64,000 nt of DNA from assembly GCA_963791045.1 (NCBI GenBank), contig CAWBQK010000007.1, positions 160,001-224,000 of the forward strand, written 5' to 3'. Source of the stretch: Candidatus Latescibacterota bacterium (GTDB lineage: Bacteria; Krumholzibacteriota; Krumholzibacteriia; WVZY01). Positions within the stretch are counted from its first letter, which is position 1, and each line of letters begins with the position of its first letter. The translations under genes and the position numbers were made by a program. Positions 613 through 64,000 of the stretch are shown one piece after another. Under the pieces are notes generated by a model. That model did not search any database, was not told where the DNA came from, and saw only the letters and a program-made list of their open reading frames with translations.

Positions 613-628
613 TGGCGTAATAGTTGCT
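613..628 (+). promoter_or_regulatory. sigma54 (RpoN) -24/-12 promoter upstream of the Zn-ribbon/RomX-like gene
   Basis: TGGCGTAATAGTTGCT: GG at 614-615 and GC at 626-627 with the required 10-nt spacing; intergenic and sense to the ORF at 756. Confidence 0.7.
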
Positions 629-755
629 TGGGATTACCTTCGATGGGTATAAGGGGCACATCTGTGAAGGGTGCGTTGCGAAATAACGGGCCATCCTTGC
701 ATATTTGTCCATGGAGGCCGGTATAGACCGGAACCGAAGCGGAAGGTAATCGCAA

Positions 756-1244
756 ATGATCATTCAATGTGAGAGCTGCATCTCCAAATATTTTTTGCCC
801 GAATCGAAGATTCCGCCGACGCCGCTCAAGGTGAGCTGTCCAAAATGCCAGGCTGTTTTTCGCCTGGTCCCGCCGGCGGAGAAAGTCTTTGCGAGCAAGC
901 CGGAGACCGTGGTACCGTCCGACGTGATTTCAACCGGACAAGCACCGGAGCCCGCTCAAACGACCGCGAAACCCGCGGGTCGCTCAAAGAGATCGGCGGG
1001 GCAGGGTCCGGACGCAAGGGCGAGACGTCTTGCCCGCGTGCTCGTGTCGGACATCCTGTGTTACAACAAAGAGAAGCGTGACCAGGCGCTCATCGACGAC
1101 GAACTGATGTCGGTTCTCGGTGATGAAATTAAAAAGTCCTGGGAGCTTTATAAGGAAAAGGTGGGGCCGGAGCTCGCCAATTCCACGAACTACTTCAAGG
1201 AAGCCTTGAACGAGATTTTAGCGGATGGGCAGAAAGTTTTCTGA
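756..1244 (+). CDS. MJ0042-type zinc-ribbon protein with a C-terminal RomX-like helical domain
   Basis: N-terminal CESC...CPKC zinc ribbon, Pro/Ala linker, then ARRLARVLVSDILCYN...EIKKSWELYKEKV...TNYFKEALNEIL, resembling myxobacterial RomX as recalled. Confidence 0.75.
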   Translation: MIIQCESCISKYFLPESKIPPTPLKVSCPKCQAVFRLVPPAEKVFASKPETVVPSDVISTGQAPEPAQTTAKPAGRSKRSAGQGPDARARRLARVLVSDILCYNKEKRDQALIDDELMSVLGDEIKKSWELYKEKVGPELANSTNYFKEALNEILADGQKVF

Positions 1245-1251
1245 TCAAGCC

Positions 1252-2145
1252 ATGACTTCGAATCACACGAAGTCTCAAGGTGCTCGTGAGCCGGCGGTTT
1301 TCGTCGTGTCAAACGATGCGGCCTATCTGAAGGCCGTATTGTCTTCAGTGTCGGGAAGTCCCCGACAACTACACCCCATGTTCGAACATAGACCAGATGA
1401 TGTCAGGCGCTGGCCGCGGCGCGACAAGCTCAATGTCGTTTTCGCGATCATCGTCGAGAAAGACGGTTATGCCGTCGACACGCTGATGCTGAGAACGTGC
1501 AAGCTCGATTATCCGCAGGTCAATTTCATAGTCATGCTGGAAGAGTGCGAGCAACGGTGTTACGTCCGATTCCAGTCCCTCGGAGTTCAGAGTATCCTCC
1601 TTGCACCGCACACCGAAGTCAGTCTCAAAAATGAGATTACCACCGCTCTGCCCAACATTCCCCAGTTCAAACGTCACCCGGATCTCCCGTTCCGGGGTAG
1701 CGTTCGTTTCGATTTCCTGGTTCCCAGCGATCTTTCGTATGTGCTGGGAATCAACCACCTCGTGTCGACGCTCCTGAAAGAGTTTTCGTTTCCCGCCGTC
1801 GATTACCGGATAAACATACCGCTGGCGTGCGATGAAGCGATAACCAACGCGATGGTCCATGGAAACAAGTCAGACGCTGAGAAGAAAGTGAGCGTTCAAA
1901 TCTACATCAGCTCGTCGAGGATCAAGCTGCGGATAAAGGATCAGGGCGAGGGTTTTGATGTTGAGCAGGTGGCGAACCCCATTGCGAGCGAGAACCTGAT
2001 GCGTTCATCGGGACGCGGCGTGTATCTGATGAGGAGTATCATGGATACCGTTGAGTACAAAGACGGCGGACGCGTTCTTGAGCTCGAAAAAACAAACACC
2101 AACTCAAACGGAAACGGCGCGATCCGGAACGGCGCCCCGCGTTAG
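1252..2145 (+). CDS. RsbW-type anti-sigma factor/Ser kinase (HATPase) with a degenerate N-terminal receiver-like domain
   Basis: EAITNAMVHGN (N box), DQGEGFD (G1) and GRGVYLM (G2). The N-terminal alpha/beta pattern is REC-like but lacks the canonical acidic and Lys residues. Confidence 0.8.
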   Translation: MTSNHTKSQGAREPAVFVVSNDAAYLKAVLSSVSGSPRQLHPMFEHRPDDVRRWPRRDKLNVVFAIIVEKDGYAVDTLMLRTCKLDYPQVNFIVMLEECEQRCYVRFQSLGVQSILLAPHTEVSLKNEITTALPNIPQFKRHPDLPFRGSVRFDFLVPSDLSYVLGINHLVSTLLKEFSFPAVDYRINIPLACDEAITNAMVHGNKSDAEKKVSVQIYISSSRIKLRIKDQGEGFDVEQVANPIASENLMRSSGRGVYLMRSIMDTVEYKDGGRVLELEKTNTNSNGNGAIRNGAPR

Positions 2146-2156
2146 ACGGCGATCCA

Positions 2157-2597
2157 TCATTCGTCGTGCCACTTCTCCTTGGCGACCCTGCCCAGCATTT
2201 CATCGATTTGATTCCATATGCGCGCATTCTGATCGGGCTCGAACAGGGCCTTCTTGACACGGCCGTACTCGTCTTTCTGGACGTAGCGGATTGATTTGAG
2301 AGTCTCCATCGGTACAAGAATATCTTTGCAGACTTTGACCTCGAGAGGTTTGCCGTCGAGGTTGATGTCGGGATTGTTGTCGGGGTGCATTCCAAGGCCC
2401 CAGCCGTGTGCGATCATGCTGCAGATGAGCGCGCGAAATGTATCCTGGTCCTGAACCGTGTCCAGATCGAGCGTGCCATGAATTTTTTCTGACACTCCGC
2501 CGACCACGGGTATGAGTTTTTTCATAACTTGTGGGCTAATTTCCACATTCAGGAGCCGGGAAAACATCTCCGTAAGCATCTTTTCAATGATCCGCAT
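2157..2597 (-). CDS. hypothetical protein
   Basis: 146-aa ORF with protein-like composition, filling the gap downstream of the MFS gene on the same strand. Confidence 0.65.
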   Translation of the reverse strand: MRIIEKMLTEMFSRLLNVEISPQVMKKLIPVVGGVSEKIHGTLDLDTVQDQDTFRALICSMIAHGWGLGMHPDNNPDINLDGKPLEVKVCKDILVPMETLKSIRYVQKDEYGRVKKALFEPDQNARIWNQIDEMLGRVAKEKWHDE

Positions 2598-2626
2598 GGA
2601 AGTACCACCCATCTTGGGGAACGATG

Positions 2627-3874
2627 TTAAATCTCGAGGTAGTCTTTTCTCTCCAACCACAAACCCACAACTGCAAGAAGCACGCCCAAACACAGGATGA
2701 TGAACGCCTTATCGAGAGCGACGGTTATCAGCGTGGCGAGAAGTGACATTGTGAGGAATGAGGTCTTGGTGACAACCTCGCGGGCGGCGAATACGCGTCC
2801 CCGAAAATCGCCGGGGATGTGGATCTGAAGGAGGGTCTCGGTGACGACGGAAATCGGCGAGACGGCCACGCCAAGGACGAAGGCCCAGACCATCAGGGGA
2901 ATCAAACCACCTGCGAATGACACCGCGACGAGAGCGGCGGCGAGGAGCAGGGTCGAGTGCGCCACCACCCGATTGAATGACAACCGTCCCTGGCACAGGC
3001 TGGCCAGGCCGGCGCCCGCGAGAAGTCCAACGGTACCCGACACGGCAACGAGAGAAAGGTATATCGTCCGGTCTGTGGGCAGTATCTCCTGGATACGCGC
3101 GATGCCGACAACGTAGAGGATCGAAAGGACTCCAAAAAGCGCCGTCTGCGCGGCGAGGCAGTAGGCGATCCGCCGATCTGTTTTTATGAGACCGATACCC
3201 TGGCGAATCGAGCCGAACAGTGAAGATGCCCGGGGGCGCGTTCGCGGTCTTGCGTCGACGGTATCGTTTTCGGCCGGGCGGTTTCGCCGAATGAGACGGG
3301 GGAGAAAGAACAGGGGCAGGAGGAAAATTACCGAGACGAAATAGCTCGTCGCGTCGGTATAAAAACTGAGCTGCCATGACCGGTAGTCGAAAAACCAGCC
3401 GCCGACAAGAAATCCGCCGATCGTGCCGATGATACCGAGCCCCCATAGCACCGCGTTTATCCGGAGAAGTTTCAGCTGCCCGAAATATTCGGGGATGGCG
3501 GCGGACTTGGCGGGCGCGAAGAGCAGATTGGCCATCGAGAGAAAGAATATGGGGATATAGAACGCGTACATGCTGTCCATGAAGTGATAAAGGACGGGAA
3601 TTACAGCCACACACAGACCACGGGCGAAATCCGTAACGACGAGCACCGTCGCCCGGTTGCCGCGATCCACGAGATCGCCAAAGAGGGGCGCAAAGAGAAG
3701 TATCGGGAGATGCCCGAAAAGAATGAATTGAAACAACTCGATGCTCGACCCCGGCGCGACTTTCCCGATCATGCCGACGACGGAGAATTGATGGAGCCGA
3801 TCGCCAAAAATCGATACCACCTGCGCGATTGTGAAGGAGAAAAACGCGAATTTGAGGAAGGACGATTTCGGCAA
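2627..3874 (-). CDS. MFS transporter
   Basis: About 12 hydrophobic segments, motif A GDLVDRGNR, and a C-terminal repeat IPGDFRGRVFA. Confidence 0.9.
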   Translation of the reverse strand: MPKSSFLKFAFFSFTIAQVVSIFGDRLHQFSVVGMIGKVAPGSSIELFQFILFGHLPILLFAPLFGDLVDRGNRATVLVVTDFARGLCVAVIPVLYHFMDSMYAFYIPIFFLSMANLLFAPAKSAAIPEYFGQLKLLRINAVLWGLGIIGTIGGFLVGGWFFDYRSWQLSFYTDATSYFVSVIFLLPLFFLPRLIRRNRPAENDTVDARPRTRPRASSLFGSIRQGIGLIKTDRRIAYCLAAQTALFGVLSILYVVGIARIQEILPTDRTIYLSLVAVSGTVGLLAGAGLASLCQGRLSFNRVVAHSTLLLAAALVAVSFAGGLIPLMVWAFVLGVAVSPISVVTETLLQIHIPGDFRGRVFAAREVVTKTSFLTMSLLATLITVALDKAFIILCLGVLLAVVGLWLERKDYLEI

Positions 3875-3878
3875 GCGT

Positions 3879-5042
3879 CTATGCCTTCTGGATCTGGAGT
3901 ACCGACTCGCGGTCGGGCCGCGACGCCAGCTCTTCGGTCAGGCCGGTGTCGTACACCTGCTCGAGCCGGCGGGCGATACTGGTCCAATGATAGCTTTCGG
4001 CGAATGTTCGGCCGTTTTCGCTGAGCGCCATCCGGAGTTCTTCGTCGTTGATGAGTTCGCTCAGGGCGGCCGCCAATGATTTCGAATCCTTCGGCGGGAC
4101 TGTAAGAGAGTTCCGCCGGTCTTCGAGTATCGTCAGATAGCCGGGAATTGATGTCGCGATGATCGGTGTGCCCGACGCCATAGCCTCGAGAAGAACGATT
4201 CCAAAACTCTCGTGATCCGTTGCCGGCGAACAGAAGACATGCCCGGTTGCGAAATACCTCGGGAGCAGGTCTTTCGGTACCACCCCGGCGAAGTGAAGTT
4301 CGATCCGTTTGGGGAGGCGCGGAAGAAGATGCCGGCGCGGCGTGTTGTCGCCGACGATGATAAGGCGGATTCTGCGCGTGGTTGATTTCGCCACCGATGA
4401 CATCGCGTGGAAAAGATACTTGAGCCCCTTGCGCTGATCGAGGCGCCCGACATAGAGAATGTTGAACGCGTCATCGCAGAACTCGTCGATGGGTTTGCGC
4501 TCAGGTGAAAACCGAGTGCAGTCGACCCCGTTCGGTATGATTGTGAAATCACCGGGGACGTACTTGTTCGCCAGCGCACGTGCGGCGTTCGAGACGGCGA
4601 TACGGGTGTCAATCCTCCGCGCGACTCTCCTGAAGAAATGCCCGAATGCCCAATGCCCAAAGCTGCGATCCGCGGCGGCGTGAAACGTCCCCAGGACGCG
4701 GCAATTCTTCGGAGCCGTAAGGAGTGTGAGCAAGGGAAGCGTCGGCGCCATCGGGCAGTGGGTGTGGATGACATCGGGTTCCAGATCGTTGAAGACCCGT
4801 TTGAGATCCCGGGCGAGGTTGGTGCCCACGGTCATATTCGCCCAGGCTCCGTATATGGGGACGAGAACATTCTTGCCCAGGCGAACAATACCCGGTTCCG
4901 TTTGTCTTGAATTGTCGAAGTTGGAAGTGACGACAGTTACGTCGTGCCCCAAACGTCTCAACTCGAGCGCGCTGTGATGAACGTGCTCGGTGACGCCGCC
5001 GGGGCGCGGGTAGTAAGACTGTGAAACAAGGGCGATTCTCAT
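3879..5042 (-). CDS. GT4 glycosyltransferase, PimA-like
   Basis: PGGVTEHV, YVGRLDQRKG and ESFGIVLLEAMASG (EX7E motif). Confidence 0.88.
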   Translation of the reverse strand: MRIALVSQSYYPRPGGVTEHVHHSALELRRLGHDVTVVTSNFDNSRQTEPGIVRLGKNVLVPIYGAWANMTVGTNLARDLKRVFNDLEPDVIHTHCPMAPTLPLLTLLTAPKNCRVLGTFHAAADRSFGHWAFGHFFRRVARRIDTRIAVSNAARALANKYVPGDFTIIPNGVDCTRFSPERKPIDEFCDDAFNILYVGRLDQRKGLKYLFHAMSSVAKSTTRRIRLIIVGDNTPRRHLLPRLPKRIELHFAGVVPKDLLPRYFATGHVFCSPATDHESFGIVLLEAMASGTPIIATSIPGYLTILEDRRNSLTVPPKDSKSLAAALSELINDEELRMALSENGRTFAESYHWTSIARRLEQVYDTGLTEELASRPDRESVLQIQKA

Positions 5043-5914
5043 AATTGAGGGGTAACGTCCGTTTTAGAGAGTTTCCGAAATATACACCACTGCCCGGGGT
5101 CATCTACAATACATTTTTCCACTCGGCTCATCAATGATTGCGTCATCTCCCGTTCGCCGGCGATATCGGCCGGCGGCGCCATCGGCGGTTCGACAATCAC
5201 ATCGAGGTGGTTGTCCGGGCGCCTGCGGCAGTAGGTCAACGCGACGGGCGTTGACATGACCCTCGACAACCGGGATGGTCCGCGGGGCGCTGTTATCTGT
5301 TTTCCCAGAAATGACACGTTATGTCCACCGGCAAAAAGATCCCCGTCGATATGAAGCGCCAGTGCCTGGTTCGCTTCGAGGGCCCTGTAAAGATCCCGGA
5401 GCGGTTGTTCGAGCCCGAGCATCTTGATGCCGAACCGTTCCTTGAGCGCTTTCACCTGTTCGGACCAGCCCGGACGGAGTTGTTCTCCGGCGATCGTGGT
5501 TATGGGCACGCCGTTCATTGAGAGGAAGAGCCCCCCGAGTTCCCAGTTGCCCGAGTGAAATGTTGCGAGGATGATGCCGCGCCCCCTGGCCAGCACTGCG
5601 TCGATATGCTCCCTGCCGTGCAGACTCATTCTCTCCCGGATGTCCTGCTCCGGCGCCGTCGTCGTCTTGAGAAGTTCGAGCACGTTGAGAGATTGGCTTT
5701 GGAATGATCGCCACGGCGGACGACCCGGGCCGAATTCGACGGCGGGTTTTGTGTTGGCCAGGTAATTTCGCCGTTTTCCGGGTGAGGTCCAGTAGTGGAT
5801 GAAGCCCCCGATTCTCGCCGCCCAACCGAGAAGTGTGTACGGCAGGAACGAGATGCCCCACGTGGCCAGACGGTACGAGAGAGGTCCGCGTTGGTTTCCG
5901 TTCCGGATCGGCAT
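5039..5914 (-). CDS. PatA/LpxL-family lipid acyltransferase
   Basis: RGIILATFHSGNWELGG catalytic motif, VSFLG, and PGQW near the C-terminus. Start placed at the ATG after a GAGAGG SD; overlaps the GT4 start by 4 nt. Confidence 0.85.
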   Translation of the reverse strand: MPIRNGNQRGPLSYRLATWGISFLPYTLLGWAARIGGFIHYWTSPGKRRNYLANTKPAVEFGPGRPPWRSFQSQSLNVLELLKTTTAPEQDIRERMSLHGREHIDAVLARGRGIILATFHSGNWELGGLFLSMNGVPITTIAGEQLRPGWSEQVKALKERFGIKMLGLEQPLRDLYRALEANQALALHIDGDLFAGGHNVSFLGKQITAPRGPSRLSRVMSTPVALTYCRRRPDNHLDVIVEPPMAPPADIAGEREMTQSLMSRVEKCIVDDPGQWCIFRKLSKTDVTPQL

Positions 5915-6122
5915 GCCCCGCCTCTCTGACGATCCCCCCGCTTTTGCGCCGCGATTCAAGGGGGAGATTCGTCGACTCACTTCCATTTCCGGAAATGCAA
6001 GTTCGTGAGCACTTTGCATTCCGCGTTCCCCGCCGGCACACGGGGCCTGCATCAGCAGTATTGTATGCGATTTGACATGAATGAGTTAAGCGGTTTCTGC
6101 CGGCGCTCTCGATTTGAGTGTT

Positions 6123-6137
6123 TGGCACGCTCTTTGC
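6123..6137 (+). promoter_or_regulatory. sigma54 -24/-12 promoter upstream of the MglA-like gene
   Basis: TGGCACG-CTCT-TTGC matches the TGGCACG-N4-TTGC consensus exactly; about 120 nt upstream of the ATG at 6255. Confidence 0.8.
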
Positions 6138-6254
6138 GCCTACCGGCCCTGCGGCAGTGTGCCCCGAGTCAAACGAATATCTAAGGTGCCGTTGATCCCG
6201 CCGTCGGGCGACACGGTTGAGAAGCTAAACCAGCGTGTTTCGAAAGGGTTAGAA

Positions 6255-7694
6255 ATGGTGGTCTTCAACACATCAGGATCGGAAGTCAACACCAAGATCG
6301 TCTACTACGGACCTGCCTTGAGCGGCAAGACGACCAATCTCGAGCACATCTATCGACAGATGCCGTCCGACGTAAAAGGCAAAATGGTGTCCATGAAGAC
6401 GCGGACGGACCGCACGTTGTTTTTTGATTTTCTGCCGCTGCAGCTCGGCGACGTCAATGGCTACCGCACTCGGATTCTTCTCTACACGGTTCCCGGCCAG
6501 GTTTATTACAACGCGACCCGGAAACTGGTTCTCAAGGGCGCGGATGCCGTGGTTTTTGTCGCCGACTCGGACCCGGAAAAACACGAAGAAAACATCGACA
6601 GCCTTCGGAATCTCGAAGAAAACCTCAACGAACTCGGGCTCACGCTCGACACGACGCCGTGGGTAATTCAGTTCAACAAAAGAGATCTGCCCAGTGCGGC
6701 GCCGGTAAGAACACTGGAGAGCGAACTCAATCTTCTCAATGTGCCGAGTTACGAGGCAATCGCCACACAGGGAATCGGCGTCTACGAAACATTCCAGGGG
6801 ATTGCCGGCATGCTTTACAACAAGCTGACGGAGAAGCTCGAACCACGGCGTCCCGAAGACGCCGCACAACCGGCGGCTACGCCGGAGGTACTCGCGGGCC
6901 CACCCAACAACGACAAGTCCATGACGGATGTGATCGATGACGCTCTGCGCGAAGTTGCGACACCCGTTCCTGGAAGTGCGCCTGTGGAAGCCACCGCGGC
7001 GCCCGTTGCAGAAGCATCCGAATCGCCTGCCGGCCAGGTCGATGGCGAAATGATCACCGCCCCGGCTCAAATAGCCGCCGCACCGGCGGGGCAGCCGGCG
7101 CCGATCACACCGGCTCCGGCCCAGGCGGCCGTCACACCGCCGGCGCCGACTTCTCAGTCCGTGCCGACCGATGTGGCTCCGTCAACCGCACCGTCCGCGG
7201 CCCCCGTCGCCAGCGCCCCGGTCACCGAAACCCCGGTGGCGCTCCAGGAAACCGCACGGCCATCGGCCGATACGGAACACATCGAGTGTGAACACGAGGA
7301 TACCGTTATGCCTGCGCCGCCGCGTGTCAGTGCCGATTCGGAGGATGAAACGTTTAAATTTGCTTCGCTGGAGGCCAAGAAAATGGACGAGACAGTCGGT
7401 CCGGTACTTGATCTCGATGAGAAAGACAACGAAGAAAAGGTCGATACAAAGCCGCTGGCGAAGGAAGATGAGTTTATTACGGATCCCTGCCGGTCGGACG
7501 CCGTGAACAATGAGATCGAGAACATCACTGAGATGATTTCGAACACGGAAGATGTCACTCTCGACGAGCAGTCCGCCATGTTGGACGATGAATGCACGAT
7601 AACAGTGCCTGTACTCCTCTCGCGGACGCAGATTCGCAAGACGATTCCGATCAAACTTCGGCTCGAGGTGCAAATCATAGACGACGATCTGTAG
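6255..7694 (+). CDS. mglA: MglA-family small GTPase with a ~280-aa Pro/Ala-rich and acidic C-terminal extension
   Basis: KIVYYGPALSGKTTNL, DRTLFFDFLPL, LYTVPGQVYY, VVFVADS and QFNKRDLP are all MglA-family signatures. Confidence 0.88.
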   Translation: MVVFNTSGSEVNTKIVYYGPALSGKTTNLEHIYRQMPSDVKGKMVSMKTRTDRTLFFDFLPLQLGDVNGYRTRILLYTVPGQVYYNATRKLVLKGADAVVFVADSDPEKHEENIDSLRNLEENLNELGLTLDTTPWVIQFNKRDLPSAAPVRTLESELNLLNVPSYEAIATQGIGVYETFQGIAGMLYNKLTEKLEPRRPEDAAQPAATPEVLAGPPNNDKSMTDVIDDALREVATPVPGSAPVEATAAPVAEASESPAGQVDGEMITAPAQIAAAPAGQPAPITPAPAQAAVTPPAPTSQSVPTDVAPSTAPSAAPVASAPVTETPVALQETARPSADTEHIECEHEDTVMPAPPRVSADSEDETFKFASLEAKKMDETVGPVLDLDEKDNEEKVDTKPLAKEDEFITDPCRSDAVNNEIENITEMISNTEDVTLDEQSAMLDDECTITVPVLLSRTQIRKTIPIKLRLEVQIIDDDL

Positions 7695-7787
7695 CCGCAA
7701 GAGACTCCGTTTACACGGAAAGTCCCCTCTATTTTTCCCTTCCTCTCCGATTGCGAAGAAAAACCGCACTCTTTTGCGTCAAAATGC

Positions 7788-7817
7788 TTGACACGTTTTT
7801 TAATGCTGTAATAGTTT
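7788..7817 (+). promoter_or_regulatory. possible sigma70 promoter for the TPR gene
   Basis: TTGACA at 7788, 18-nt spacer, TAGTTT, in an AT-rich intergenic region. Confidence 0.4.
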
Positions 7818-7854
7818 CGCTCTTGAAGAAGTTATCAACAGGGAAGCTATTCTA

Positions 7855-10549: not shown

Positions 10550-10560
10550 TCGGGGACAAA

Positions 10561-11400: not shown

Positions 11401-11447
11401 CCCCGCACGATGTGCCGCTTTGTGCCGTTGTAACGGACGATCTCCCG

Positions 11448-11476
11448 TTGACCCCTCGAAAAGGTGATGGTACCCT
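11448..11476 (+). promoter_or_regulatory. putative sigma70 promoter of valS
   Basis: TTGACC-17 nt-TACCCT with a TG extended -10. Confidence 0.45.
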
Positions 11477-14746: not shown

Positions 14747-14750
14747 TCCC

Positions 14751-43790: not shown

Positions 43791-43815
43791 GAGTATTCGA
43801 GTTACGTTTGGTTGC

Positions 43816-43844
43816 TTGACCCCACCGGTGAAACTTAGTATCAT
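43816..43844 (+). promoter_or_regulatory. putative sigma70 promoter of the porV-like gene
   Basis: TTGACC-17 nt-TATCAT followed by a GGGAGG SD. Confidence 0.6.
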
Positions 43845-43869
43845 TTAATCGAATGGGAGGCTTTAGCTT

Positions 43870-47709: not shown

Positions 47710-47721
47710 TGTCGTATTCGT

Positions 47722-50700: not shown

Positions 50701-51136
50701 CCGGGGGCTAACCGTCGGCGTTGGGAGCACGTTCGACGTGCTCGGGCTTGCCGCCGCGGCGGGGTGGGGGCTTCGGTTTTCGGCGGGGAGCACACTCGAT
50801 GGAGAAATCGAATACCGGCAACAGGAGGACTCGGAGTCCGGCGCGCGCGAGGTTGCGATTACGTTTCGCCCGCGTTTCGTTTGGCGCCTGACCAAGTCGC
50901 TGAACCTGTTTGGGCGCTATGAAGTCACACAGTTTACTTTAAGTGATGAGACAGGGATCAAGCCTTTCTATTTCGCGAATCCGGGCACCACGCACCGTTG
51001 GGCGCTGACGCCGAATTTGCGGTTGTCCAAAGTAATTTCGCTGCTCGGCACCTACCAGGGGCGGAGTGAAGAAACATTTTCAGGATCCAGGATTGTCGAC
51101 CATGAACTCACCGTGGAAACACGCGCATATTTCTAA
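47722..51136 (+). CDS. very large outer-membrane protein with SprA-like motifs (one gene split by a frameshift at ~48990)
   Basis: ORFs 47722-49044 and 48905-51136 join at a G run. Signal peptide, two E-x-V...DY-x-I-x-Y..G motifs, many amphipathic strands and a terminal YF. Confidence 0.7.
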
Positions 51137-54639: not shown

Positions 54640-54688
54640 TCGCCGATCATTCAAATCGAATTCAGCTTCAAACGCAAGAGGAGCGGTG

Positions 54689-55969: not shown

Positions 55970-55989
55970 GAAACTAACAGGAACAGCCC

Positions 55990-57515
55990 TTGGCCAAGCC
56001 AAACAGCATAAGAAAAAAGGCGCTCGACTTTGCTCGAAAGCGCCAGTGGGACAAGGCCCTCGCCGAATTCGATAAACTTGTTGAGATCGAGTCGCACAAT
56101 CCCAACCTGTTCAACGAAATTGGCGACCTCCACATCAAACTCGACAACAAACGCGAGGCGTACAAGAGCTTTCACAGGGCGGTCGACGCTTACACGAAAG
56201 TTGGGCTTCATAACAATGCTGTCGCCGTGTGCAAGAAAATCATCAGGCTCAACCCCGGCGACCATGTTGTTTACGGAAAACTCGCGAGACTCAGACACCA
56301 GCAGGGATTCCACAGGGAAGCGGAAACATACTCGCTCGACTTTTTTGGCAATGCGGCACAAGGGCCGGACGTTGCCTCCGACGACCTGCGCGAGCTGGCC
56401 GTTGATATCGCTCTCGCCGCTGAGAAATCACCCGCCGTTCTGGAAATGGCGGCCGATTATCTCATAAACTGCGATCTTCGGCAGGATGCGGGGAGTGTTC
56501 TCGAAAAGCTATACCACCACCACTCCACCGAAGGCAACTCGTCGGAAGTCGACAAGGTAAAAGCTCGGATGGAGTCCATTGGATTCGTTCCGGCGCCGCC
56601 GCCGGATTCCGGGCAAACCGAAAAGCTCGAAACGATCGAGTCTCACAGAGAGAGTTCGGATGGTTTCCGTGATGACGAATTCGGTTCGTCGAACGATGCG
56701 GCGCTCCCGCCACATATTCGCAGCGATCAGGGAGCGGATGTCGCGAGCGATTTCGGCGTGATCGATATGCCGGGGCCGAGCGACGCCTCCGATACAGAAG
56801 TCCAAATGGAATCGGTGGACGAGCAAGAAGAACCGATACGGCCAATGCGGATGCTCCGTTCGACCCGGACACAACGAGCGATGTTTTTGACGGACCGGCG
56901 TCGCAGCAATCGGATTGTGACAGCGAACCGATCGACGAAGGGGCGGATGTTGTGGATGCCGGCGCGAACGAGCACGTGGATGAAAATGATTCCGCCGCAG
57001 GCCTGGAGGAATATGTTATCCCCGTGACCGGTGCGGATGAAGAGATCGAAGCGACCGATCCGGAAGAGCCCGCCGATCCATTCGCGGAAGATGTTTCGGG
57101 TGACTCCATTCTGGGAGGTCTTGCCAGCGAAGTTACCGCCGATGTGGCGGAAGACGACCATCGAAGCCACTATGATCTTGGAATGGCGTATCTCGAAATG
57201 GCCCTTCTCAACGAGGCGATCCGCGAGTTCCAGTTCGCGGCGAAGTCGGCGCCCTACCAGGTCCGATGTCTCGAGATGATCGGTCAGTGCTTCATCCAGC
57301 AGGATAACCCGCAGCTGGCGATCAAACAGCTTACGCGCGGTCTCGCTCTCGTCGGCGATGACGACAGCGACGCAATGGGTATCAAGTACAATCTCGGCCT
57401 GGCGTACGAAATGATCGGCGATGACGAGAAGGCCCAGTCCTTTTTCGAGGACGTGTATGTTATCGACGTCACATTCAGAGACATCGAGAACAAGGTCAAG
57501 AAATACGCCACGTGA
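55990..57515 (+). CDS. SgmX-like TPR protein (N-terminal TPRs, acidic linker, C-terminal TPRs); frameshift at ~56832
   Basis: N-terminal KRQWDKALAEF...AVAVCKKIIRLNP and C-terminal SHYDLGMAYLEM...FRDI. Adding one base in GAAGAACC gives a continuous acidic linker ETDTANADAPFD. Confidence 0.72.
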
Positions 57516-57543
57516 AGACCCGCTTTTGCCACCCCGGTAATTG

Positions 57544-57573
57544 TTGACTGAAACGACACGGTTCCTCTACCAT
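57544..57573 (+). promoter_or_regulatory. putative sigma70 promoter
   Basis: TTGACT-18 nt-TACCAT upstream of the ECF S-component gene. Confidence 0.45.
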
Positions 57574-57681
57574 TCATCGACTCCGGCGACCTGCTCGACC
57601 CGAGGCGGCTCCTCCATTTACGGCGAACCTGTCGATCCGGACGAAAATGTCGTCGTTTTCACGTTTACAGAATTCCTCCCG

Positions 57682-58230
57682 ATGCATCAAACCCGACGTG
57701 TACTCCTGACCTGTTTGCTCATTGCCGTGGTCGTTACCCTCGGGTATGCGCTTGCCGGAGTGCCCAATATCGAATTGATGACCGTTGCCGTGTTCGTGTC
57801 GGGATTCCTGCTGGGGCCGGGATTGGGTGCGGTGGTCGGTGCGGTTTCGGCGACGATGTTTTCGGTATTCAATCCGCTCGGTGCGGCGCTGCCGCCGCTG
57901 CTGATCGCGCAGGCCCTCTCGCAGGCGCTTGTCGGGGTGGCCGGAGGGTGTGTCGGACCGGTGTTAATCAATTGTGGTAAACGCTGGATATCATTTGCCG
58001 GAGCGGGCATACTTGGACTCCTCCTCACCCTGGTTTATGACATCGCGACCAATGTGGGCGCATTTGTAGTATTTTCCGGGGAGCGGACGCTGGGGAATCT
58101 AGTAAAATTTGTTGGAGCCGGGATCGTATTTATGGTGCTTCACCTTGTGTGGAACACGTTGGTGTTTGCGGTCGTGCTCACACCTGTTTTGATGGTGTTG
58201 GACCGCTACAGACGGGAGATTTCCGGGTGA
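57682..58230 (+). CDS. ECF transporter S-component-like membrane protein (CbrT-like)
   Basis: 182 aa with 5-6 TM helices; AGVPNIELMT and GFLLGPGLGAVVG patterns. Confidence 0.72.
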   Translation: MHQTRRVLLTCLLIAVVVTLGYALAGVPNIELMTVAVFVSGFLLGPGLGAVVGAVSATMFSVFNPLGAALPPLLIAQALSQALVGVAGGCVGPVLINCGKRWISFAGAGILGLLLTLVYDIATNVGAFVVFSGERTLGNLVKFVGAGIVFMVLHLVWNTLVFAVVLTPVLMVLDRYRREISG

Positions 58231-60200
58231 CTCGGATCAAGTCGATGTTTTGGCTGATGGTGATCGTGATGACCGTGCTGTGGACAACGGACGGCGCGGC
58301 TCAAGATGCCGAGGCTGAAGCGGATACAACAAAAGCGGCGCCCACACCCGAGTCCCCCAAGCGACATGTGGTGACCGAGGACGGCAACGTCGCACCCACC
58401 GTGCAGCCGCCGGCGCGCGCTCCGGCGTCGCGGATCGAAGTGCCCCATAGTCCGACGGACACCATCAACGGAGACACATTTCGACGACGCCACGCTTTTT
58501 CCCTCGATCATTTTTTTGAGATGTGGCCCCGGACCGTCATCGGGCGGCAGGGTCCGATCGGCGCGGAGGCCAACTACTCTCGTTATGGGGTAGGGTATGG
58601 CCGGGGTGCATTCTATCTTGGGAGCGTCCCGCTGAACGATCCCCAGGATGACCGCATGCCACTGGGACTTGTGCCGACGACACCGATCGGCGAACTCAGC
58701 GCCAAAGGCCAGTCGAGACTGTTTCTGCCGGCGCGGTCCAACATAGAAGGCGTCTACCAGATTGTCGAGCCTCCCATGCCGACGGACAAGCCGGTCACCT
58801 GGGTCGAGTTGTCGAAGGGTGATCGAAATCTTCGACAGAGACGTTTGAAGTTCTCATCGATTGTCGGCCCCGTGGGAATCGATTTTTATTTTGACGAACT
58901 CTTGAACGACGGCTACGCCTTCGATGGCCGTGAGAAGGTAAACGGATCGGACTACGGAAAGTCGACCACACGGACACAGGGAGGCAACATAAGGGGACGG
59001 ATCCCGGGCGGTGAGGGTTACCTGTTTTCATTCCGGAGGTTCACCCACACTTTCGAGGGGGACCTGATTTCGGCGGACCGCGTCCACCGAAGGGACGGTC
59101 ATTACGCATTGTTGAGAAGTGGTTTTGGCGCGGTGGACTTGTCCGTGTTCGAAAGGAGCCACAAGACTCAAGCCGAAGAGGCGCGTGATCTATCCGGTAA
59201 TATTGCGGCGGTGGATTCGAGCTCGGCCAACCATACCGCCGGCGCATTTTTGTCCTGGCCGTTCTCTCTTGGTGGTGGTAGCGGGGTGACGCTCGGTGCG
59301 GGTTACGAGGACGTTCACTCGAAACAGGAAATCGGCGACGTTACGGCGAGTAACAGACTTCAAAAGGCGCACCTGGGCGTGACGGGAAGCACGAGGGCGC
59401 CGTGGGGATTCGCCCTGAAAGCGAACGCAAATACCACCTATTATGTCGACTCTTTTGCCGGCTGGGGCGCGGACCTGACTTTTGGCCGGTCGTTGGGTTC
59501 GAGCAACCGGTTTATTGTAGAACTCAAGCGCGGTTTCAGGATGCCCAATCTTTCGGAGCTTTACCAACCTCTCCACAGTGTGTTCATGGAGCCGACGATC
59601 AAACTTACAGGCAACCGCTACGTAAAGGACGAACACTCGCTCGAAGCAAGCGCTGCCTGGTACACCCGGTTCGGGATTCTTGAGAACGAAATCCGCGGGA
59701 CCGGGATACGCATGCAGAATCCGATAGTCTTCAACCGCGTCGAAGGGGAAGCCGTTAACTTGCGCAGCGCTCAGAACGGTGTTGTCGAGGATCTTTTCGT
59801 TGTCGAAGAGCGATTGGGAATTCGCGAGTCGGTGTTGACTATGGATGTTGAACTCTCGGGGGGAATCGAGTACTGCCCAAGCGTGCGGGAACGGTACTTC
59901 GCGTCGGTTCCCGGAGTTCGTGCAAGCGCCGTGGCGTCAATCGGACGCGATATTTTCAAGAACACAAGCGGCTTTAGATTGAGCGCGGAATACAAGTACG
60001 GAGGTTCGCGCAAGGCGGGGTCGACCCACGAGCTGCCGTCGTACAACGTTGTCAATGTCAAGCTCGTCTTTCGTCTCATTGATGCTAACATTTATCTTCA
60101 GTGGTTGAATGTATCCGACACCAAGTACGTGACGGTGTGGCCCTTCCTGATGCCGCCGCGGACGTTTGTCTATGGTATAGAGTGGAGCATTTTCGATTAG
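58227..60200 (+). CDS. TonB-dependent-receptor-like/putative porin outer-membrane protein
   Basis: Signal peptide, plug-like region (GSVPLNDP), GFRMPNLSELY, LPSYNVVN and PRTFVYGIEW. Confidence 0.65.
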   Translation: MTRIKSMFWLMVIVMTVLWTTDGAAQDAEAEADTTKAAPTPESPKRHVVTEDGNVAPTVQPPARAPASRIEVPHSPTDTINGDTFRRRHAFSLDHFFEMWPRTVIGRQGPIGAEANYSRYGVGYGRGAFYLGSVPLNDPQDDRMPLGLVPTTPIGELSAKGQSRLFLPARSNIEGVYQIVEPPMPTDKPVTWVELSKGDRNLRQRRLKFSSIVGPVGIDFYFDELLNDGYAFDGREKVNGSDYGKSTTRTQGGNIRGRIPGGEGYLFSFRRFTHTFEGDLISADRVHRRDGHYALLRSGFGAVDLSVFERSHKTQAEEARDLSGNIAAVDSSSANHTAGAFLSWPFSLGGGSGVTLGAGYEDVHSKQEIGDVTASNRLQKAHLGVTGSTRAPWGFALKANANTTYYVDSFAGWGADLTFGRSLGSSNRFIVELKRGFRMPNLSELYQPLHSVFMEPTIKLTGNRYVKDEHSLEASAAWYTRFGILENEIRGTGIRMQNPIVFNRVEGEAVNLRSAQNGVVEDLFVVEERLGIRESVLTMDVELSGGIEYCPSVRERYFASVPGVRASAVASIGRDIFKNTSGFRLSAEYKYGGSRKAGSTHELPSYNVVNVKLVFRLIDANIYLQWLNVSDTKYVTVWPFLMPPRTFVYGIEWSIFD

Positions 60201-60256
60201 CTTGAGTGGGGTGTAACGATCGATGGGTCGTGGCGGTGAGGGGAACGCCGTCCAAA

Positions 60257-60703
60257 ATGGGAGGTGTGGTGGTGAGGAAAGTAATCGGAGCGTTTGTTGT
60301 CTTGTCCGTCGCCGTTGTTCTCAGGGGCGGCGATATTTTTTATGGGCCGGCGTGGAAAGCGTTGTCGGCTTTTGGCGGGTCCACCGCATCATCTGTTTCT
60401 CGTGACGGGGCTCTTGACCGATCACCCTCGAACCCGGACGGCGCTGCCCTCCCGAAGCCCGCTCAGCATCGGCCGCTCACGGGTAAGAAAAACCTGCCCC
60501 CTGATTTCATTGACCATCCGCTTCTGTTCCTCTCAACAGCCCCTGCGGACTCGCTCGTGCTGCTTCCGGGCATTGGTCCGGTACTTGCTGAACGCATCGT
60601 GGGTGTTCGAACCGGTAAAAGGTCATTCACCAGGTGGGATGATCTTTTGGTCGTCAAGGGTATCGGACCCAAGACGCTCGATCGGCTCAAGGGACTTAAG
60701 TAA
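60257..60703 (+). CDS. ComEA-like helix-hairpin-helix protein (start uncertain)
   Basis: TAPADSLVLLPGIGPVLAERIV...DDLLVVKGIGPKTL (two HhH motifs) and an N-terminal hydrophobic anchor. Confidence 0.8.
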   Translation: MGGVVVRKVIGAFVVLSVAVVLRGGDIFYGPAWKALSAFGGSTASSVSRDGALDRSPSNPDGAALPKPAQHRPLTGKKNLPPDFIDHPLLFLSTAPADSLVLLPGIGPVLAERIVGVRTGKRSFTRWDDLLVVKGIGPKTLDRLKGLK

Positions 60704-60957
60704 TCCACCGCCGGTCGAAAACCGTTCAGTCTAGTCGCATTTTGCGGTTTTTCATTTAAATGCAGGTAATACGCGGTCGGGTTATTCCAGCCGTACCAAG
60801 GCGGGTCGCAGACCCGGAGATGCCCGGATTGCCGGTGCGCCTTTGGGGTGCAAGGAGCGATAACTTTCTTATGGACATGCGGTTAGATAGTATCTTCAAG
60901 CCCCGCTCCATGGAGCTTTCTGCGGGGTGTTTCAACGTCGCCCGGGCCGGGGCGCCG

Positions 60958-60972
60958 TGGCATAAGACTTGC
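60958..60972 (+). promoter_or_regulatory. sigma54 -24/-12 promoter upstream of pilB
   Basis: TGGCATA-AGAC-TTGC: GG at 60959-60960 and GC at 60971-60972 with 10-nt spacing; about 90 nt upstream of pilB. Confidence 0.78.
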
Positions 60973-61060
60973 GGAAAAACCGCAGTTCGATGTGCGATTC
61001 GGCAATCAAATAGTCAACTTACAAAATATTCTGATCTGATCGGTTCTGGAGGATCCACCG

Positions 61061-62743
61061 TTGACGGATAGAATCGCTAAAAAACTCCTGGATTCAAGCC
61101 TAATAAGCCAGGAGCAAATGGGTCGCGCGCTCGAGGTCCAGAAGACCGAGGGCGGTTCTCTTGGTTACAATCTCGTCAAGACCGGCGCGATTTCGGAGTT
61201 GGCCTTCGCCGAATTCATGGGGCAGGTGTTCAATGTTCCGGCGATCAACCTCGATGAAGCCGATCCCAGCGGCGACGCGGTCGCGTTGATTCCAACCGAG
61301 GTAGCCACCAAGTTTCAGGTCGTCCCCATCCAACGAGAAGGCAGAATCCTCACCGTTGCGATGGCCAACCCGGACAATATCTTTGCGATCGACGACATCA
61401 AGTTCATTACCGGTCTTGAGGTGCGGCCCGTAGTCGCGACGGAATCCTCGATCAAGAAGGCCATCGATCGCCTGTACGACTCGGCGGACTCGCTGGCCAG
61501 CATTATGAGGGACATGGAGGAGGACTTCGAGATCGTCGATGACATCGACGAGGACATTTCACTCGAAGAAGTCCAGTCCACCGATGCGCCGGTAGTCAAG
61601 CTGGTGAACAGCCTCATCGCCGACGCCGTCGCCAAGCACGCGAGTGATATTCATATTGAACCATACGAAAAACAGGTGCGCGTTCGCTACAGGATCGACG
61701 GAATGCTCCACGAGATGATGTCCCCGCCGTTCAAGATGAAGGGCGCTATCATTTCGAGACTCAAGATTATGGCCGAGCTGGACATCGCCGAGAAACGAGT
61801 TCCGCAGGACGGCCGCATAAAGATTCGGATCGGCAGCAAATCAATCGACCTTCGTGTCAGTTCGCTTCCGACGATTTATGGCGAGAAAGTCGTGATGCGT
61901 ATCCTCGACAAAAGCAATCTCCAGATCGATCTCTCAAAACTGGGTTTCGACGAGAAAGCATTGGCGAGATTTCTCGATGCGATTGAGAGTCCCTATGGAA
62001 TGGTGCTCGTAACGGGACCGACGGGTTCGGGTAAAAGTACAACTCTCTACAGCGCGCTGAATCGAATCAACAAACCTTTCACGAACATCATGACGGCCGA
62101 GGATCCCGTTGAGTACAACATCGACGGCATCAACCAGGTCAACGTAAACGACGACATCGGACTGTCGTTTGCTGCCGCGTTGAGGGCATTCCTCCGCCAG
62201 GATCCCAACATCGTAATGGTAGGTGAGATTCGTGACCTCGAGACGGGATCGATCGCGATCAAGGCGGCTCTGACGGGTCACCTCGTTTTGAGCACGCTTC
62301 ATACGAACGACGCTCCCAGTTCGGTCAACAGAATGATCGACATGGGAATCGAACCGTTCCTTGTGTCGAGTTCGGTAATCATGATCATCGCACAGCGTCT
62401 TGTTCGCAAGCTCTGCGCGAAGTGCAAACAACCGGTCAAGCTCCACGAGGAGACACTCCGGGAGTTGGGAATCGAGGAATCCCCCGAGGAATTGACGTTG
62501 TTCGAAGCGAGGGGTTGCATCGACTGTAACGATACGGGCTACGCGGGCCGGCTCGGACTCTACGAGGTTATGCCGATCTCGGGGACGGTCAAAGAAATGA
62601 TTATCGATCGGAAATCGGTGACTGATTTGAAGACCCAGGCCGTTAAAGAAGGAATGCTTACGCTACGGACTGACGGTCTAGAAAAATTCAAACGTGGAAT
62701 TACATCACTCGAAGAAATTCTCCGAGAAACAACCGAGTTTTAA
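61061..62743 (+). CDS. pilB: type IV-A pilus assembly ATPase PilB
   Basis: DAPVVKLVN, ASDIHIEP, GPTGSGKST, TAEDPVE, LRQDP, tetracysteine motif; TTG start after GGAGG. Confidence 0.95.
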   Translation: MTDRIAKKLLDSSLISQEQMGRALEVQKTEGGSLGYNLVKTGAISELAFAEFMGQVFNVPAINLDEADPSGDAVALIPTEVATKFQVVPIQREGRILTVAMANPDNIFAIDDIKFITGLEVRPVVATESSIKKAIDRLYDSADSLASIMRDMEEDFEIVDDIDEDISLEEVQSTDAPVVKLVNSLIADAVAKHASDIHIEPYEKQVRVRYRIDGMLHEMMSPPFKMKGAIISRLKIMAELDIAEKRVPQDGRIKIRIGSKSIDLRVSSLPTIYGEKVVMRILDKSNLQIDLSKLGFDEKALARFLDAIESPYGMVLVTGPTGSGKSTTLYSALNRINKPFTNIMTAEDPVEYNIDGINQVNVNDDIGLSFAAALRAFLRQDPNIVMVGEIRDLETGSIAIKAALTGHLVLSTLHTNDAPSSVNRMIDMGIEPFLVSSSVIMIIAQRLVRKLCAKCKQPVKLHEETLRELGIEESPEELTLFEARGCIDCNDTGYAGRLGLYEVMPISGTVKEMIIDRKSVTDLKTQAVKEGMLTLRTDGLEKFKRGITSLEEILRETTEF

Positions 62744-62758
62744 GAAGGCGGATGGATC

Positions 62759-63835
62759 ATGATCAACCTGCGGGATCTTTTGCACGAAATGATCGAGAAA
62801 AAGGCGTCTGACCTGCACATCACCGCGGGATTGTCTCCACAGTTGAGAATAGACGGACAAGTGACGCCGACACCGCATGAGAAAATGACGCCCGAAGACA
62901 CATTGCACATCACCTACAGCGTGCTCAACGAAGAACAGCAGAAACGGTTCGAGGCGGAAAAAGAGCTCGACTTCTCGTTTGGCGTCAAGGGACTTAGCCG
63001 GTTTCGCGCAAACGTATTTCTGCAGCGCGGAGTGGTTAGCCTCGCGATCAGGCAGATTCCGTACGAGATTCTGGACATGAGAACGCTGGGATTGCCGCAA
63101 CGTCATCGAGAGACTTGCGGAAAAACAACGGGGCATGATCCTCGTTACCGGGTCCAACAGGATGTGGCAAATCGACAACACTTGCCAGCGTCATTGACAA
63201 GGTGAACAGGGAGAGAACCAGTCACATCATCACGATCGAAGACCCCATCGAATACATCCATCAACACAAGCGGTGCATTGTAAACCAGCGAGAGGTAAAG
63301 GCGGATACGGAGAGTTTTTCCGTTGCCCTCAAACACGTGCTTCGCCAGGACCCCGACGTCATTCTGATCGGCGAGATGCGCGACCTTGAGACGATGGCCG
63401 CCGGACTGACAATCGCGGAGACCGGTCACTTGACCCTGGCGACACTCTCACACGAACTCCACATATGAGTCCATCAACCGTATCGTCGATTCCTTCCCGG
63501 CGTCGCAGCAGGGGCAGGTTCGAGCCCAGCTGGCGTTTGTTCTCGAAGGTGTCGTTACGCAACAGCTCATCCCGCGGGCAAACGGGAAGGGTCGGGTCCT
63601 TGTCTGCGAGGTGATGGTTTGTACGCCGGCCATCCGCGCGACGATCAGGGACGACAAGGTTCACCAGATCTATGGCTTGATGCAGGCCGGACAGAAATTC
63701 GGGATGCAGACGATGAACCAGGGTCTGTTCAACGCAGCAATCAAAGGTGATATCACCACCAACGAAGCTTTGAGAAGAAGTGCGGATCCGGAAGAGCTCG
63801 CCAACATGCTCGGGACAAAAGTGCCGGTTTGCTGA
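62759..63835 (+). CDS. pilT: pilus retraction ATPase PilT (three apparent +1 frameshifts)
   Basis: ASDLHI and RFRANVF. Removing single bases at ~63098, ~63150 and ~63448 restores [29 protein letters not shown] and GMQTM. Confidence 0.9.
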
Positions 63836-63871
63836 TTAGGACCCGCGGTACCGGCTTAAGGGGGATCTACA

Positions 63872-64000
63872 ATGGCCACGACATTCGTATGGAAGGGACG
63901 GAGTCCGACAGGAGAGATCCTTTCCGGTGAATACGTAACCGAGAACAAGCAGGAACTCATTGGGCACCTGCGCAAAAAGAAAGATCATTGTCACTTCTCT
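63872..64000 (+). CDS. pilC: type IV pilus platform protein PilC, N-terminus (runs off the window)
   Basis: MATTFVWKGRSPTGEILSGEY...LRK, in pilB-pilT-pilC order. Confidence 0.7.
   Translation, partial: MATTFVWKGRSPTGEILSGEYVTENKQELIGHLRKKKDHCHFS

Follow-up and report, generated by a model that had tools for sequence, protein, structure and literature searches.

The subject of this report is a putative polarity and type IVa pilus system whose genes sit at both ends of a 64 kb stretch of DNA, which we call the window (G000:C7:160001-224000). The window belongs to a genome (G000) of 3.66 Mb that is assembled in 21 contigs, with a completeness of ~81% and a contamination of ~6%. Its GC content is even (54-58%) and its bulk is taken up by housekeeping genes, among them the 3′ end of recG, valS, uvrB, nadC, groEL, pan and fol genes, dnaE, accA and hutU. 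At the left end, module A (756-8979) would comprise a RomX-type exchange factor or adaptor on a zinc ribbon (ZnR) of the GltJ/ZitP type, a pseudo-receiver kinase, an orphan MglA carrying a tail and a tetratricopeptide repeat (TPR) protein. At the right end, module B (55990-64000 and beyond) would comprise a half-length SgmX, here called mini-SgmX, followed by pilB-pilT-pilC(-pilS-pilR-pilA). As far as the literature cited here reports, the axis from MglA and RomR/RomX via SgmX to PilB has been established only for Myxococcus, and Bdellovibrio shows parts of it. The coordinates of the features are collected in Table 1.

Table 1. Features of the window discussed in the text (positions are those of the window; aa, amino acids).
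Feature	Position	Strand	Remarks
ZnR-RomX fusion protein, 162 aa	756-1244	+	zinc ribbon aa 1-36, disordered linker ~43-81, helical bundle 85-161
Pseudo-receiver plus RsbW/SpoIIAB-like ATPase/kinase, 306 aa	1225-2145	+	its first 20 nt overlap the 3′ end of the RomX gene
Orphan MglA-family GTPase, 479 aa	6255-7694	+	G domain aa 1-195, 285-aa disordered C-terminal tail
Cytoplasmic TPR protein, 374 aa	7855-8979	+	matches several TPR families; directly 3′ of the tailed GTPase
PorU and PorV-family outer-membrane protein (type IX secretion system, T9SS)	39738-44859	+	NF033707 554.3 bits (cut-off 420); NF033709 217 bits (cut-off 90)
Mini-SgmX: N-terminal TPR block, acidic disordered linker, C-terminal TPR triple	55990-57515	+	one frameshift in the linker
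ComEA-like helix-hairpin-helix DNA-binding protein	60206-60703	+	Pfam HHH_3 46 bits; just upstream of pilB
PilB, type IVa pilus extension ATPase with N-terminal MshEN-type domain	61061-62743	+	TIGR02538 747.4 bits (cut-off 675.65); Pfam T2SSE, MshEN
PilT retraction ATPase	62759-63835	+	TIGR01420 in pieces; three 1-base frame changes near 63097-63102, 63151-63155 and 63447-63449
Start of pilC	63872-64000	+	runs off the window; 89% identity to PilC of G079 over residues 3-39

The first gene of module A encodes a protein with a zinc ribbon of the MJ0042 type at its N-terminus (Pfam Zn_ribbon_4, 49.6 bits, cut-off 30.3). A search of PDB sequences with this protein matched its residues 87-156 without gaps to residues 7-76 of RomX from Myxococcus xanthus (PDB 8zna), the half of the RomR/RomX exchange factor that binds MglA, with an E-value of 3.9e-11 and an identity of ~35-40% across the 70 residues. 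An AlphaFold2 (AF2) model built from 27 orthologues has the zinc-ribbon sheet, the disordered linker and the helical bundle within the limits given in Table 1, and a Foldseek comparison of the model with PDB returned 8zna as the top match and as the sole one at E <= 0.001 (TM(target) 0.75, root mean square deviation (rmsd) 2.1 Å, 77 columns). Structure comparison and sequence match thus agree that the three-helix-bundle fold of 8ZNA is present in ZnR-RomX. Helix 1 of RomX has been described to bind MglA-GTP; the exchanges R11A/R14A abolish this binding and the guanine nucleotide exchange factor (GEF) activity, and D19A abolishes the GEF activity (preprint 10.1101/2024.02.20.581209). In the HMMER alignment R91, R94 and D99 of ZnR-RomX correspond to R11, R14 and D19, and these three residues are invariant in 27/27 aligned orthologues, as are the four cysteines of the zinc ribbon. 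The window protein therefore shares with RomX the fold and the residues needed for exchange. It differs from RomX, a small stand-alone protein, in being fused through a linker of ~45 disordered residues to the N-terminal zinc ribbon, a fusion that is found in all 27 aligned orthologues as well, and in that the gene next to it encodes the pseudo-receiver/RsbW-like kinase and not RomR. At E <= 1e-5 the family counts 1309 proteins of 89-284 aa, of which the best 120 are named only "zinc-ribbon domain-containing", "Zn finger-like uncharacterized" or "hypothetical".

In Caulobacter, ZitP organises pilus biogenesis at the pole. Its zinc finger (PDB 2NB9) and the ZnR of GltJ (PDB 7ZOK) are, like the ribbon of ZnR-RomX, CxxC...CxxC zinc ribbons of the MJ0042 type. 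The zinc ribbon of the window protein matches 7zok with E 0.0028, which is weak, and 2nb9 with E 0.0074, and Foldseek ranks the two structures 8th and 2nd, respectively. The similarity is weak and concerns a small domain that abounds in certain lineages; it gives no basis for transferring a function. The GltJ ZnR has been reported to bind MglB and to raise GTP hydrolysis by MglA, and matches to the RomX fold to co-occur frequently with receiver and zinc-finger domains (preprint 10.1101/2024.02.20.581209); the list of fold matches in this preprint may already include proteins with zinc finger and RomX fold of the kind described here.

The overlapping downstream gene codes for a protein whose sole Pfam match is HATPase_c_2 at aa 167-288 (77.3 bits, cut-off 27.4). 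For its N-terminal part Pfam, Response_reg included, gave nothing usable at E <= 5. The AF2 model (30 sequences, pLDDT 75.8) shows there, at aa 21-150, a (beta-alpha)5 arrangement, that is, a CheY-like fold, which aligns to dozens of receivers with Z-scores of 10-12; CpaE and TadZ, with their atypical receivers, rank highest. Among the 30 sequences there is no conserved acidic phospho-acceptor at the ends of strands 1 and 3. Having a receiver fold but no such residue, the domain is therefore termed a pseudo-receiver. Residues 158-294 of the model resemble SpoIIAB (Z 17.0), and the N-box and the ATP-binding boxes G1 and G2 (N208, D239, G241, G243, S262-G265) are invariant in the 30 sequences. 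In this the C-terminal domain is like the anti-sigma factor kinases SpoIIAB and RsbW, from which the protein differs by its N-terminal receiver fold without conserved phospho-acceptor and by the lack of an adjoining STAS gene; it also scores under the cut-offs of the NCBIfam RsbW and SpoIIAB equivalogs. The layout of two domains aligns with that of LvrC from Leptospira (PDB 9qih, receiver plus HATPase) with Z 15.4, but with an rmsd of 11.8 Å. Pairs of STAS and RsbW-like genes do occur elsewhere in the genome, none of them beside the RomX gene. In the complete genome G079, which comes from the same family, a weak STAS match (32.5 bits) lies ~2.3 kb from the RomX gene.

The GTPase of module A is a member of the MglA family. 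Its residues 3-191 match M. xanthus MglA (PDB 6hjh/6h17/5ymx) with E 2.5e-67 and 230.8 bits, and the structure of Thermus thermophilus MglA (3t12) is matched with E 3.6e-63. An intrinsic arginine finger next to the G2 threonine and the sequence TVPGQ are given as hallmarks of Group 1 MglA proteins (PMC4316618). The window GTPase has both, since its arginine finger (DRT) and its G3 motif TVPGQ are identical to those of M. xanthus MglA, and D52, R53, T54 and T78-Q82 are invariant in the alignment of orthologues. The protein is not of the single-domain type of ~195 aa, and no Roadblock gene is found nearby. What sets it apart from M. xanthus MglA is a disordered tail of 170-390 residues in the window protein and its orthologues, all of whose measurable open reading frames (ORFs; 53/53) have 366-765 aa. 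This tail is rich in proline, alanine and acidic residues and gave nothing usable in Pfam at E <= 5. Most of it cannot be aligned, with the exception of short motifs that are kept (S-V-S-E-F-V-D type, E-F-I-x-D-P) and of the C-terminal ~30 residues, which are conserved and by eye are predicted to be rich in strands. The P-loop of the window GTPase (6294-6330) reads GPALSGKTT, with alanine at the position of Gly21 of M. xanthus MglA. We considered this exchange as a sign of a GTP-locked GTPase and rejected the idea: the alanine is confined to the window and some close relatives, and it is not a trait of the family because most orthologues keep the glycine.

The genome encodes three MglA paralogues. 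The second one (197 aa) is the nearest to M. xanthus MglA (304.8 bits) and lies directly 3′ of mglB at C7:63.2-64.2 kb; the MglB encoded there matches M. xanthus MglB with E 1.7e-21. This canonical mglB-mglA pair, whose coexistence with the tailed GTPase is a further difference from the known systems, is located on the same contig ~102 kb upstream of the gene at 6255-7694. The third paralogue, on another contig (G000:C11:42110-42695), is frameshifted and tailed and is likewise followed by a gene for a TPR protein. It belongs to a second set of tailed MglA, small ORF and 386-aa TPR protein (G000:C11:33000-50000, locus L018, ~6643-9735, minus strand) that is paralogous to 6255-8979 of the window. 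A further Roadblock/LC7 gene (G000:C6:41164-41400; L001:1447-1818; 63.7 bits) was considered as an MglB or MglC and rejected, its best PDB matches being generic Robl_LC7 proteins and a GTPase being absent from its neighbourhood. SofG, an MglA homologue of M. xanthus, carries terminal extensions. In not being encoded beside mglB the window GTPase is like SofG and the orphan MglA of Bdellovibrio, and the TPR gene that adjoins it recalls the interaction of Bdellovibrio MglA with Bd2492, a remote homologue of SgmX (PMC7519303, PMC7668184).

For the product of this TPR gene at 7855-8979 we saw by eye neither a signal peptide nor a lipobox in the N-terminus. On this ground, by eye only, we rejected the idea that it is a lipoprotein pilotin of the Tgl/PilW type. 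SgmX is not among its best 25 NCBIfam families.

Relatives of the locus were collected with the GTPase 6255-7694 as query and one genome per species, which gave 58 loci. Where the organism is named these are metagenome-assembled genomes (MAGs) of Candidatus Krumholzibacteriia/-ota or Candidatus Latescibacterota, with one exception that is labelled Patescibacteria group, and there is no myxobacterium among the 58. The gene order of module A in the window is recG, ZnR-RomX and the pseudo-receiver kinase, followed on the opposite strand by genes for a major facilitator superfamily (MFS) transporter, a glycosyltransferase of the GT4 family and a lipid A acyltransferase, and then by the genes for the tailed MglA, the TPR protein, a Wzi-like protein, UbiA and valyl-tRNA synthetase. 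This order recurs across the related loci. In 40/58 loci the tailed MglA is preceded by ZnR-RomX at a distance of 2.7-6.1 kb; in 17 of the other 18 the sequence ends less than 4.1 kb upstream, and the remaining one (L065) covers 8 kb there without a ZnR-RomX match. The gene for the pseudo-receiver kinase accompanies ZnR-RomX in 39/58 loci, and a TPR gene lies downstream of the GTPase in 41/58. In more distant relatives (L042:9185-9586, L045:9249-9617) a stand-alone canonical receiver (Pfam Response_reg, 73-77 bits) is encoded between the tailed GTPase and the TPR gene, and this interval also holds an ORF of 177 aa; the window has neither of the two.

Module B starts with two ORFs in different frames (55990-57027 and 56952-57515) which we regard as one gene: the acidic linker carries on in the second frame, the frameshift falls within 56790-57006 (~56830-56850 as judged by composition), and in 11/11 relatives the gene is a single intact ORF of 448-626 aa. 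Both halves have the NCBIfam model of SgmX (NF052243) as their best family, at the model positions 4-113 (E 2.7e-11) and 876-1014 (E 2.7e-16) of 1065, that is, colinear. Among the families matched by all 13 members of the alignment SgmX has the lowest best E-value (1.4e-32), and it is also the best family for the first member. M. xanthus SgmX has been described as an N-terminal and a C-terminal block of TPRs with the middle unassigned (PMC7519303), and its last three repeats, TPR12-14, as the part that binds MglA-GTP (PMC7668184). Mini-SgmX has, like SgmX, TPRs at both ends and a middle that is not made of TPRs, its linker being acidic and not conserved, and its C-terminal match falls on the end of SgmX where PMC7668184 places TPR12-14. 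No signal peptide was seen in mini-SgmX by eye. The C-terminal domain of mini-SgmX recurs in 12 longer proteins of 934-1001 aa (E 5e-20 to 5e-14, 34-39% identity). For each of the seven that were scanned the best family is SgmX (178-224 bits), with a match that starts at model position 1-3 and lies within positions 1-259. The short and the long form of SgmX are thus bridged by these proteins, because they match the C-terminus of mini-SgmX and the N-terminal positions of SgmX.

Mini-SgmX is followed ~3.5 kb downstream by pilB. In the interval lie the genes for an ECF S-component-like membrane protein (57541-58230) and for a 683-aa protein whose N-terminus resembles a signal peptide and whose C-terminal end resembles a beta-barrel (58149-60200), the latter without a match in Pfam or NCBIfam and 49% identical in G079; both are conserved between the SgmX-like gene and pilB. 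The ComEA-like gene keeps its position in G079 too, and the orthologue there matches TIGR01259 comE with E 9.8e-9. An ORF of 103 aa at 60760-61071 looks non-coding and gave nothing usable in Pfam at E <= 5. The complete order in G079 is SgmX-like, membrane protein, 659-aa protein, ComEA-like, PilB, PilT, PilC, histidine kinase (pilS-like), sigma-54 response regulator (pilR-like), PilA and an ATP-binding cassette (ABC) ATPase. We take the order of its pil genes to be that of M. xanthus, and PilC and the N-terminus of PilA score best on models named after Myxococcus, below the cut-offs. In the window pilT has to be read in four pieces in the frames 2, 3, 1 and 2, with pieces of 112, 143 and 55 bits on TIGR01420 (cut-off 319.1). 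PilT of G079 is intact (357 aa, 487.6 bits) and aligns over the full length to the window pilT at 78-94% identity. Single-base frame changes are also present in a second pilT of the genome (G000:C8:4341-5376) and in the third MglA on contig C11, and the long housekeeping genes of the window are intact. Since these other genes are split as well, the frameshifts are probably indels of the assembly rather than signs of decay. Among the sequencing runs searched with pilT none holds at least half of the words, the best share being 0.19. Elsewhere in the genome a 407-aa receiver-domain protein is encoded beside a PilT-like ATPase fragment (G000:C18:117672-120028; 53 bits, TIGR01420), which may be another secretion-ATPase module.

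The co-occurrence of the genes was determined in 121 genomes of the phylum, the same set being used for four queries. ZnR-RomX was found in 114/121, the MglA domain in 104/121, the SgmX-like C-terminal domain in 100/121 and PilB over its cut-off in 93/121 genomes. The SgmX-like gene is present in 100 of the 104 genomes with MglA. All 17 genomes without MglA also lack the SgmX-like gene and a PilB that passes the cut-off, and have only lower-scoring PilB/GspE-like ATPases or none. PilB without an SgmX-like match occurs in two genomes (G031 and G097), both of family f6, in which the SgmX-like scores are weakest. In 81/91 genomes that have both genes, pilB shares contig and strand with the SgmX-like gene, which precedes it by 2.8-8.2 kb (median 3.4 kb); in the remaining 10/91 the two are on separate contigs. 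This position of the gene, 3-8 kb upstream of pilB across the phylum, is a difference from SgmX of M. xanthus, where to our knowledge sgmX is not linked to pilB. The modules A and B are 55-80 kb apart in several families, 0.15-0.5 Mb in others and 2.3 Mb in G079. Thus they are not one cluster, and their co-location in the window is backbone synteny. The arrangement is more than chance, given that each module keeps its synteny across the phylum and the two occur together.

An earlier note, made from the letters of this DNA, had described a dispersed polarity and pilus system with new domain fusions, in which RomX and SgmX were assigned by sequence similarity. Both assignments hold up, the former through the PDB and Foldseek matches to 8zna and the latter through NF052243 being best for both halves in colinear order, and the fusions are there in ZnR-RomX and in the MglA with its tail. 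Equally, pilB-pilT-pilC was correctly recognised from 61061 on, with PilB over the cut-off, pilT split and pilC starting. The GTPase at 6255 is an MglA-family protein, as the note had it, but an orphan paralogue and not the canonical MglA, whose pair with mglB lies outside the window; the mglB which the note wanted to be looked for in the genome is the gene directly 5′ of that mglA. "Dispersed" describes correctly that the modules are separated (by 55 kb in the window), and misses that each of them is a conserved gene neighbourhood. The note did not mention the TPR gene 3′ of the GTPase, the frameshifts or the pseudo-receiver/RsbW-like gene overlapping that for RomX. The assignment was to be given up if the genes did not co-occur with type IVa pilus genes in relatives, or if the genome proved to be that of a myxobacterial relative. 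The co-occurrence is strong, as the counts given above demonstrate, and the closest loci are MAGs of Latescibacterota/Krumholzibacteriia.

The note had also pointed to the FCB (Fibrobacteres-Chlorobi-Bacteroidetes) group on account of PorU and PorV. These genes were identified rightly, as PorU and a PorV-family protein exceed the NCBIfam cut-offs; on the narrower PorV equivalog NF033710 the latter reaches 135.4 bits, under the cut-off of 250. In NCBI taxonomy Latescibacterota belongs to the FCB group, and Krumholzibacteriota stands under Bacteria without further placement. The PorU/PorV genes are context and stand outside the polarity system. On their 3′ side there are two overlapping ORFs (440 and 743 aa, 47722-51136) without a Pfam family, the first with a weak SprA/Sov match (34.6 bits), and this pair may be one frameshifted outer-membrane gene related to T9SS.

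From the homologies we propose that the window probably holds two modules, conserved in the phylum, of a small-GTPase polarity system which would control type IVa pili along the line GEF, MglA-GTP, SgmX and PilB. Homology, conserved residues, synteny and co-occurrence are what we observed; for binding steps, polarity and switching we infer from the homologues of M. xanthus. Helix 1 of the RomX domain would bind the GTP form of an MglA-type GTPase and promote nucleotide exchange, and the zinc ribbon and/or the pseudo-receiver protein could replace RomR in its anchoring and regulating role. MglA-GTP would then bind the C-terminal TPR triple of mini-SgmX, whose N-terminal TPR block would stimulate PilB, so that pili could be extended at one pole. 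The canonical MglB encoded elsewhere on the contig would be the GTPase-activating protein for the canonical MglA. We did not find a CheW domain in the genome of the window or in G079, and therefore no Frz-like input for reversals is seen; the system would work without it, and any switching would have to come from another signal, possibly via the RsbW-like kinase.

Several findings weigh against this proposal. The RomX-like domain stops 6 residues past the position aligned to RomX residue 76 and thus is shorter at the C-terminus and has no counterpart of Trp-87. The interface of RomX with the RomR receiver has been placed on helix 3, at the residues Leu-75, Arg-76 and Trp-87 (preprint 10.1101/2024.02.20.581209). 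As to RomR itself, which the earlier note suggested looking for, none of the 23 receiver-domain hits of the genome has the long proline-rich tail of a RomR-like protein, in a crude screen that is blind to other linkers and covers a genome of 81% completeness. Of the 17 genomes without MglA, 11 still show a RomX-like match, which is weaker and often lies in a longer open frame, and the domain is thus not strictly tied to MglA. The genomes that lack the genes belong to 7 genera of 2 families, which means few independent losses, and because the genomes are related, fewer independent events underlie the co-occurrence than the counts suggest. Any of the three paralogues may be the one that works with a given partner, and family f6 has ZnR-RomX with only MglA of the canonical type. 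Mini-SgmX has 448-626 aa against ~1060 aa of SgmX, which is half the length; its halves score 42.5 and 59.1 bits and the intact orthologue from the family of G079 82 bits, with the cut-off of NF052243 at 1800, and TPR similarity is prone to matches driven by the repeats. Finally, pilT and the SgmX-like gene are frameshifted in the assembly; should these changes be genuine, this organism is losing the system.

The low scores of mini-SgmX, which stay far under the cut-off, and the fact that the TPR families MamA, PrsT and PilW match as well would also fit a generic TPR scaffold at 55990, with an SgmX match driven by the repeats and another role at the pilus, for example as an assembly factor. 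We consider this very unlikely. SgmX is the best family for both halves and for the first member of the alignment, the match is colinear with both ends of the model, and its best E-value is the lowest among the families that all 13 members match; the TPR protein at 7855, in contrast, does not have SgmX among its best 25 families. The bridging proteins of 934-1001 aa, the lack of a signal peptide as judged by eye and a layout of N-terminal TPRs, unstructured middle and C-terminal TPRs like that reported for SgmX (PMC7519303) point the same way. It is also conceivable, though in our opinion decidedly improbable, that module A is unrelated to pili and regulates some other polar or envelope process, sharing 64 kb with pilB only through backbone synteny. 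The distances between the modules, in G079 and in several genomes where they reach 0.15-0.5 Mb, would agree with that, and so would the envelope genes in and around module A (MFS transporter, GT4 glycosyltransferase, lipid A acyltransferase, Wzi-like protein), the TPR protein that adjoins the tailed GTPase as its own, and the RomX-like matches in 11/17 genomes that have no MglA, SgmX-like gene or PilB. The almost perfect tracking of MglA with the SgmX-like gene and PilB (100/104; 17/17) argues against a separation, as does the match of the C-terminal TPRs of mini-SgmX to the end of SgmX that contains the MglA-binding domain.

The homologues might, on the other hand, all be real and the pili serve DNA uptake or adhesion rather than polarised motility, the GTPase module setting where or when pili form without any switching of poles. 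The ComEA-like gene directly upstream of pilB, here and in G079, fits DNA uptake equally well and thereby counts against our proposal, and the missing CheW in both genomes and the missing RomR-like protein are in line with it. With the intact PilT of G079 and the canonical MglA/MglB pair the parts for a dynamic control are at hand, yet competence pili need retraction too. We hold this explanation to be unlikely.

Returning to the proposed polarity system, its RomR function might be built in a different way. The RomX domain could be anchored by its own zinc ribbon and controlled by the serine kinase of pseudo-receiver/RsbW type from the overlapping gene, and a disordered stretch with motifs, like that of RomR, could have moved to the duplicated MglA. 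This is a speculation which we would not call likely. If it were true, phosphorylation in the style of partner switching would be coupled to a Ras-like polarity GTPase, and bacteria would have a second, independent architecture of a GTPase-based polarity oscillator, acting on type IVa pili via a minimal SgmX and without Frz input.

MglA and MglB are known to be widespread outside the myxobacteria (PMC4316618, PMC3441718), among others in Fibrobacteres, Gemmatimonadetes and Chlorobi according to PMC4316618, and PMC3441718 reports RomR outside this group as well. In the literature searched, neither counterparts of RomX and SgmX nor an architecture such as this are reported for the lineage, and MglA and Latescibacteria were not found together; the papers that mention Krumholzibacteria as well as pili have neither term in the title or abstract. 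The present analysis reveals recognisable counterparts of RomX and SgmX in a distant uncultured lineage, where they are conserved, show linkage to the pilus genes and are lost when these are. The versions in this lineage have different fusions and apparently do without RomR or Frz, which suggests a greater age and variability of the polarity switch than has been assumed. The naturally minimal SgmX marks which parts of SgmX matter, and the RomX domain retains the residues needed for the GEF activity while its end facing RomR is shortened. The pseudo-receiver kinase is a candidate for a new regulator, and some 1300 proteins, the best 120 of which so far carry only names such as zinc-ribbon or hypothetical protein, could be annotated as RomX-domain proteins.

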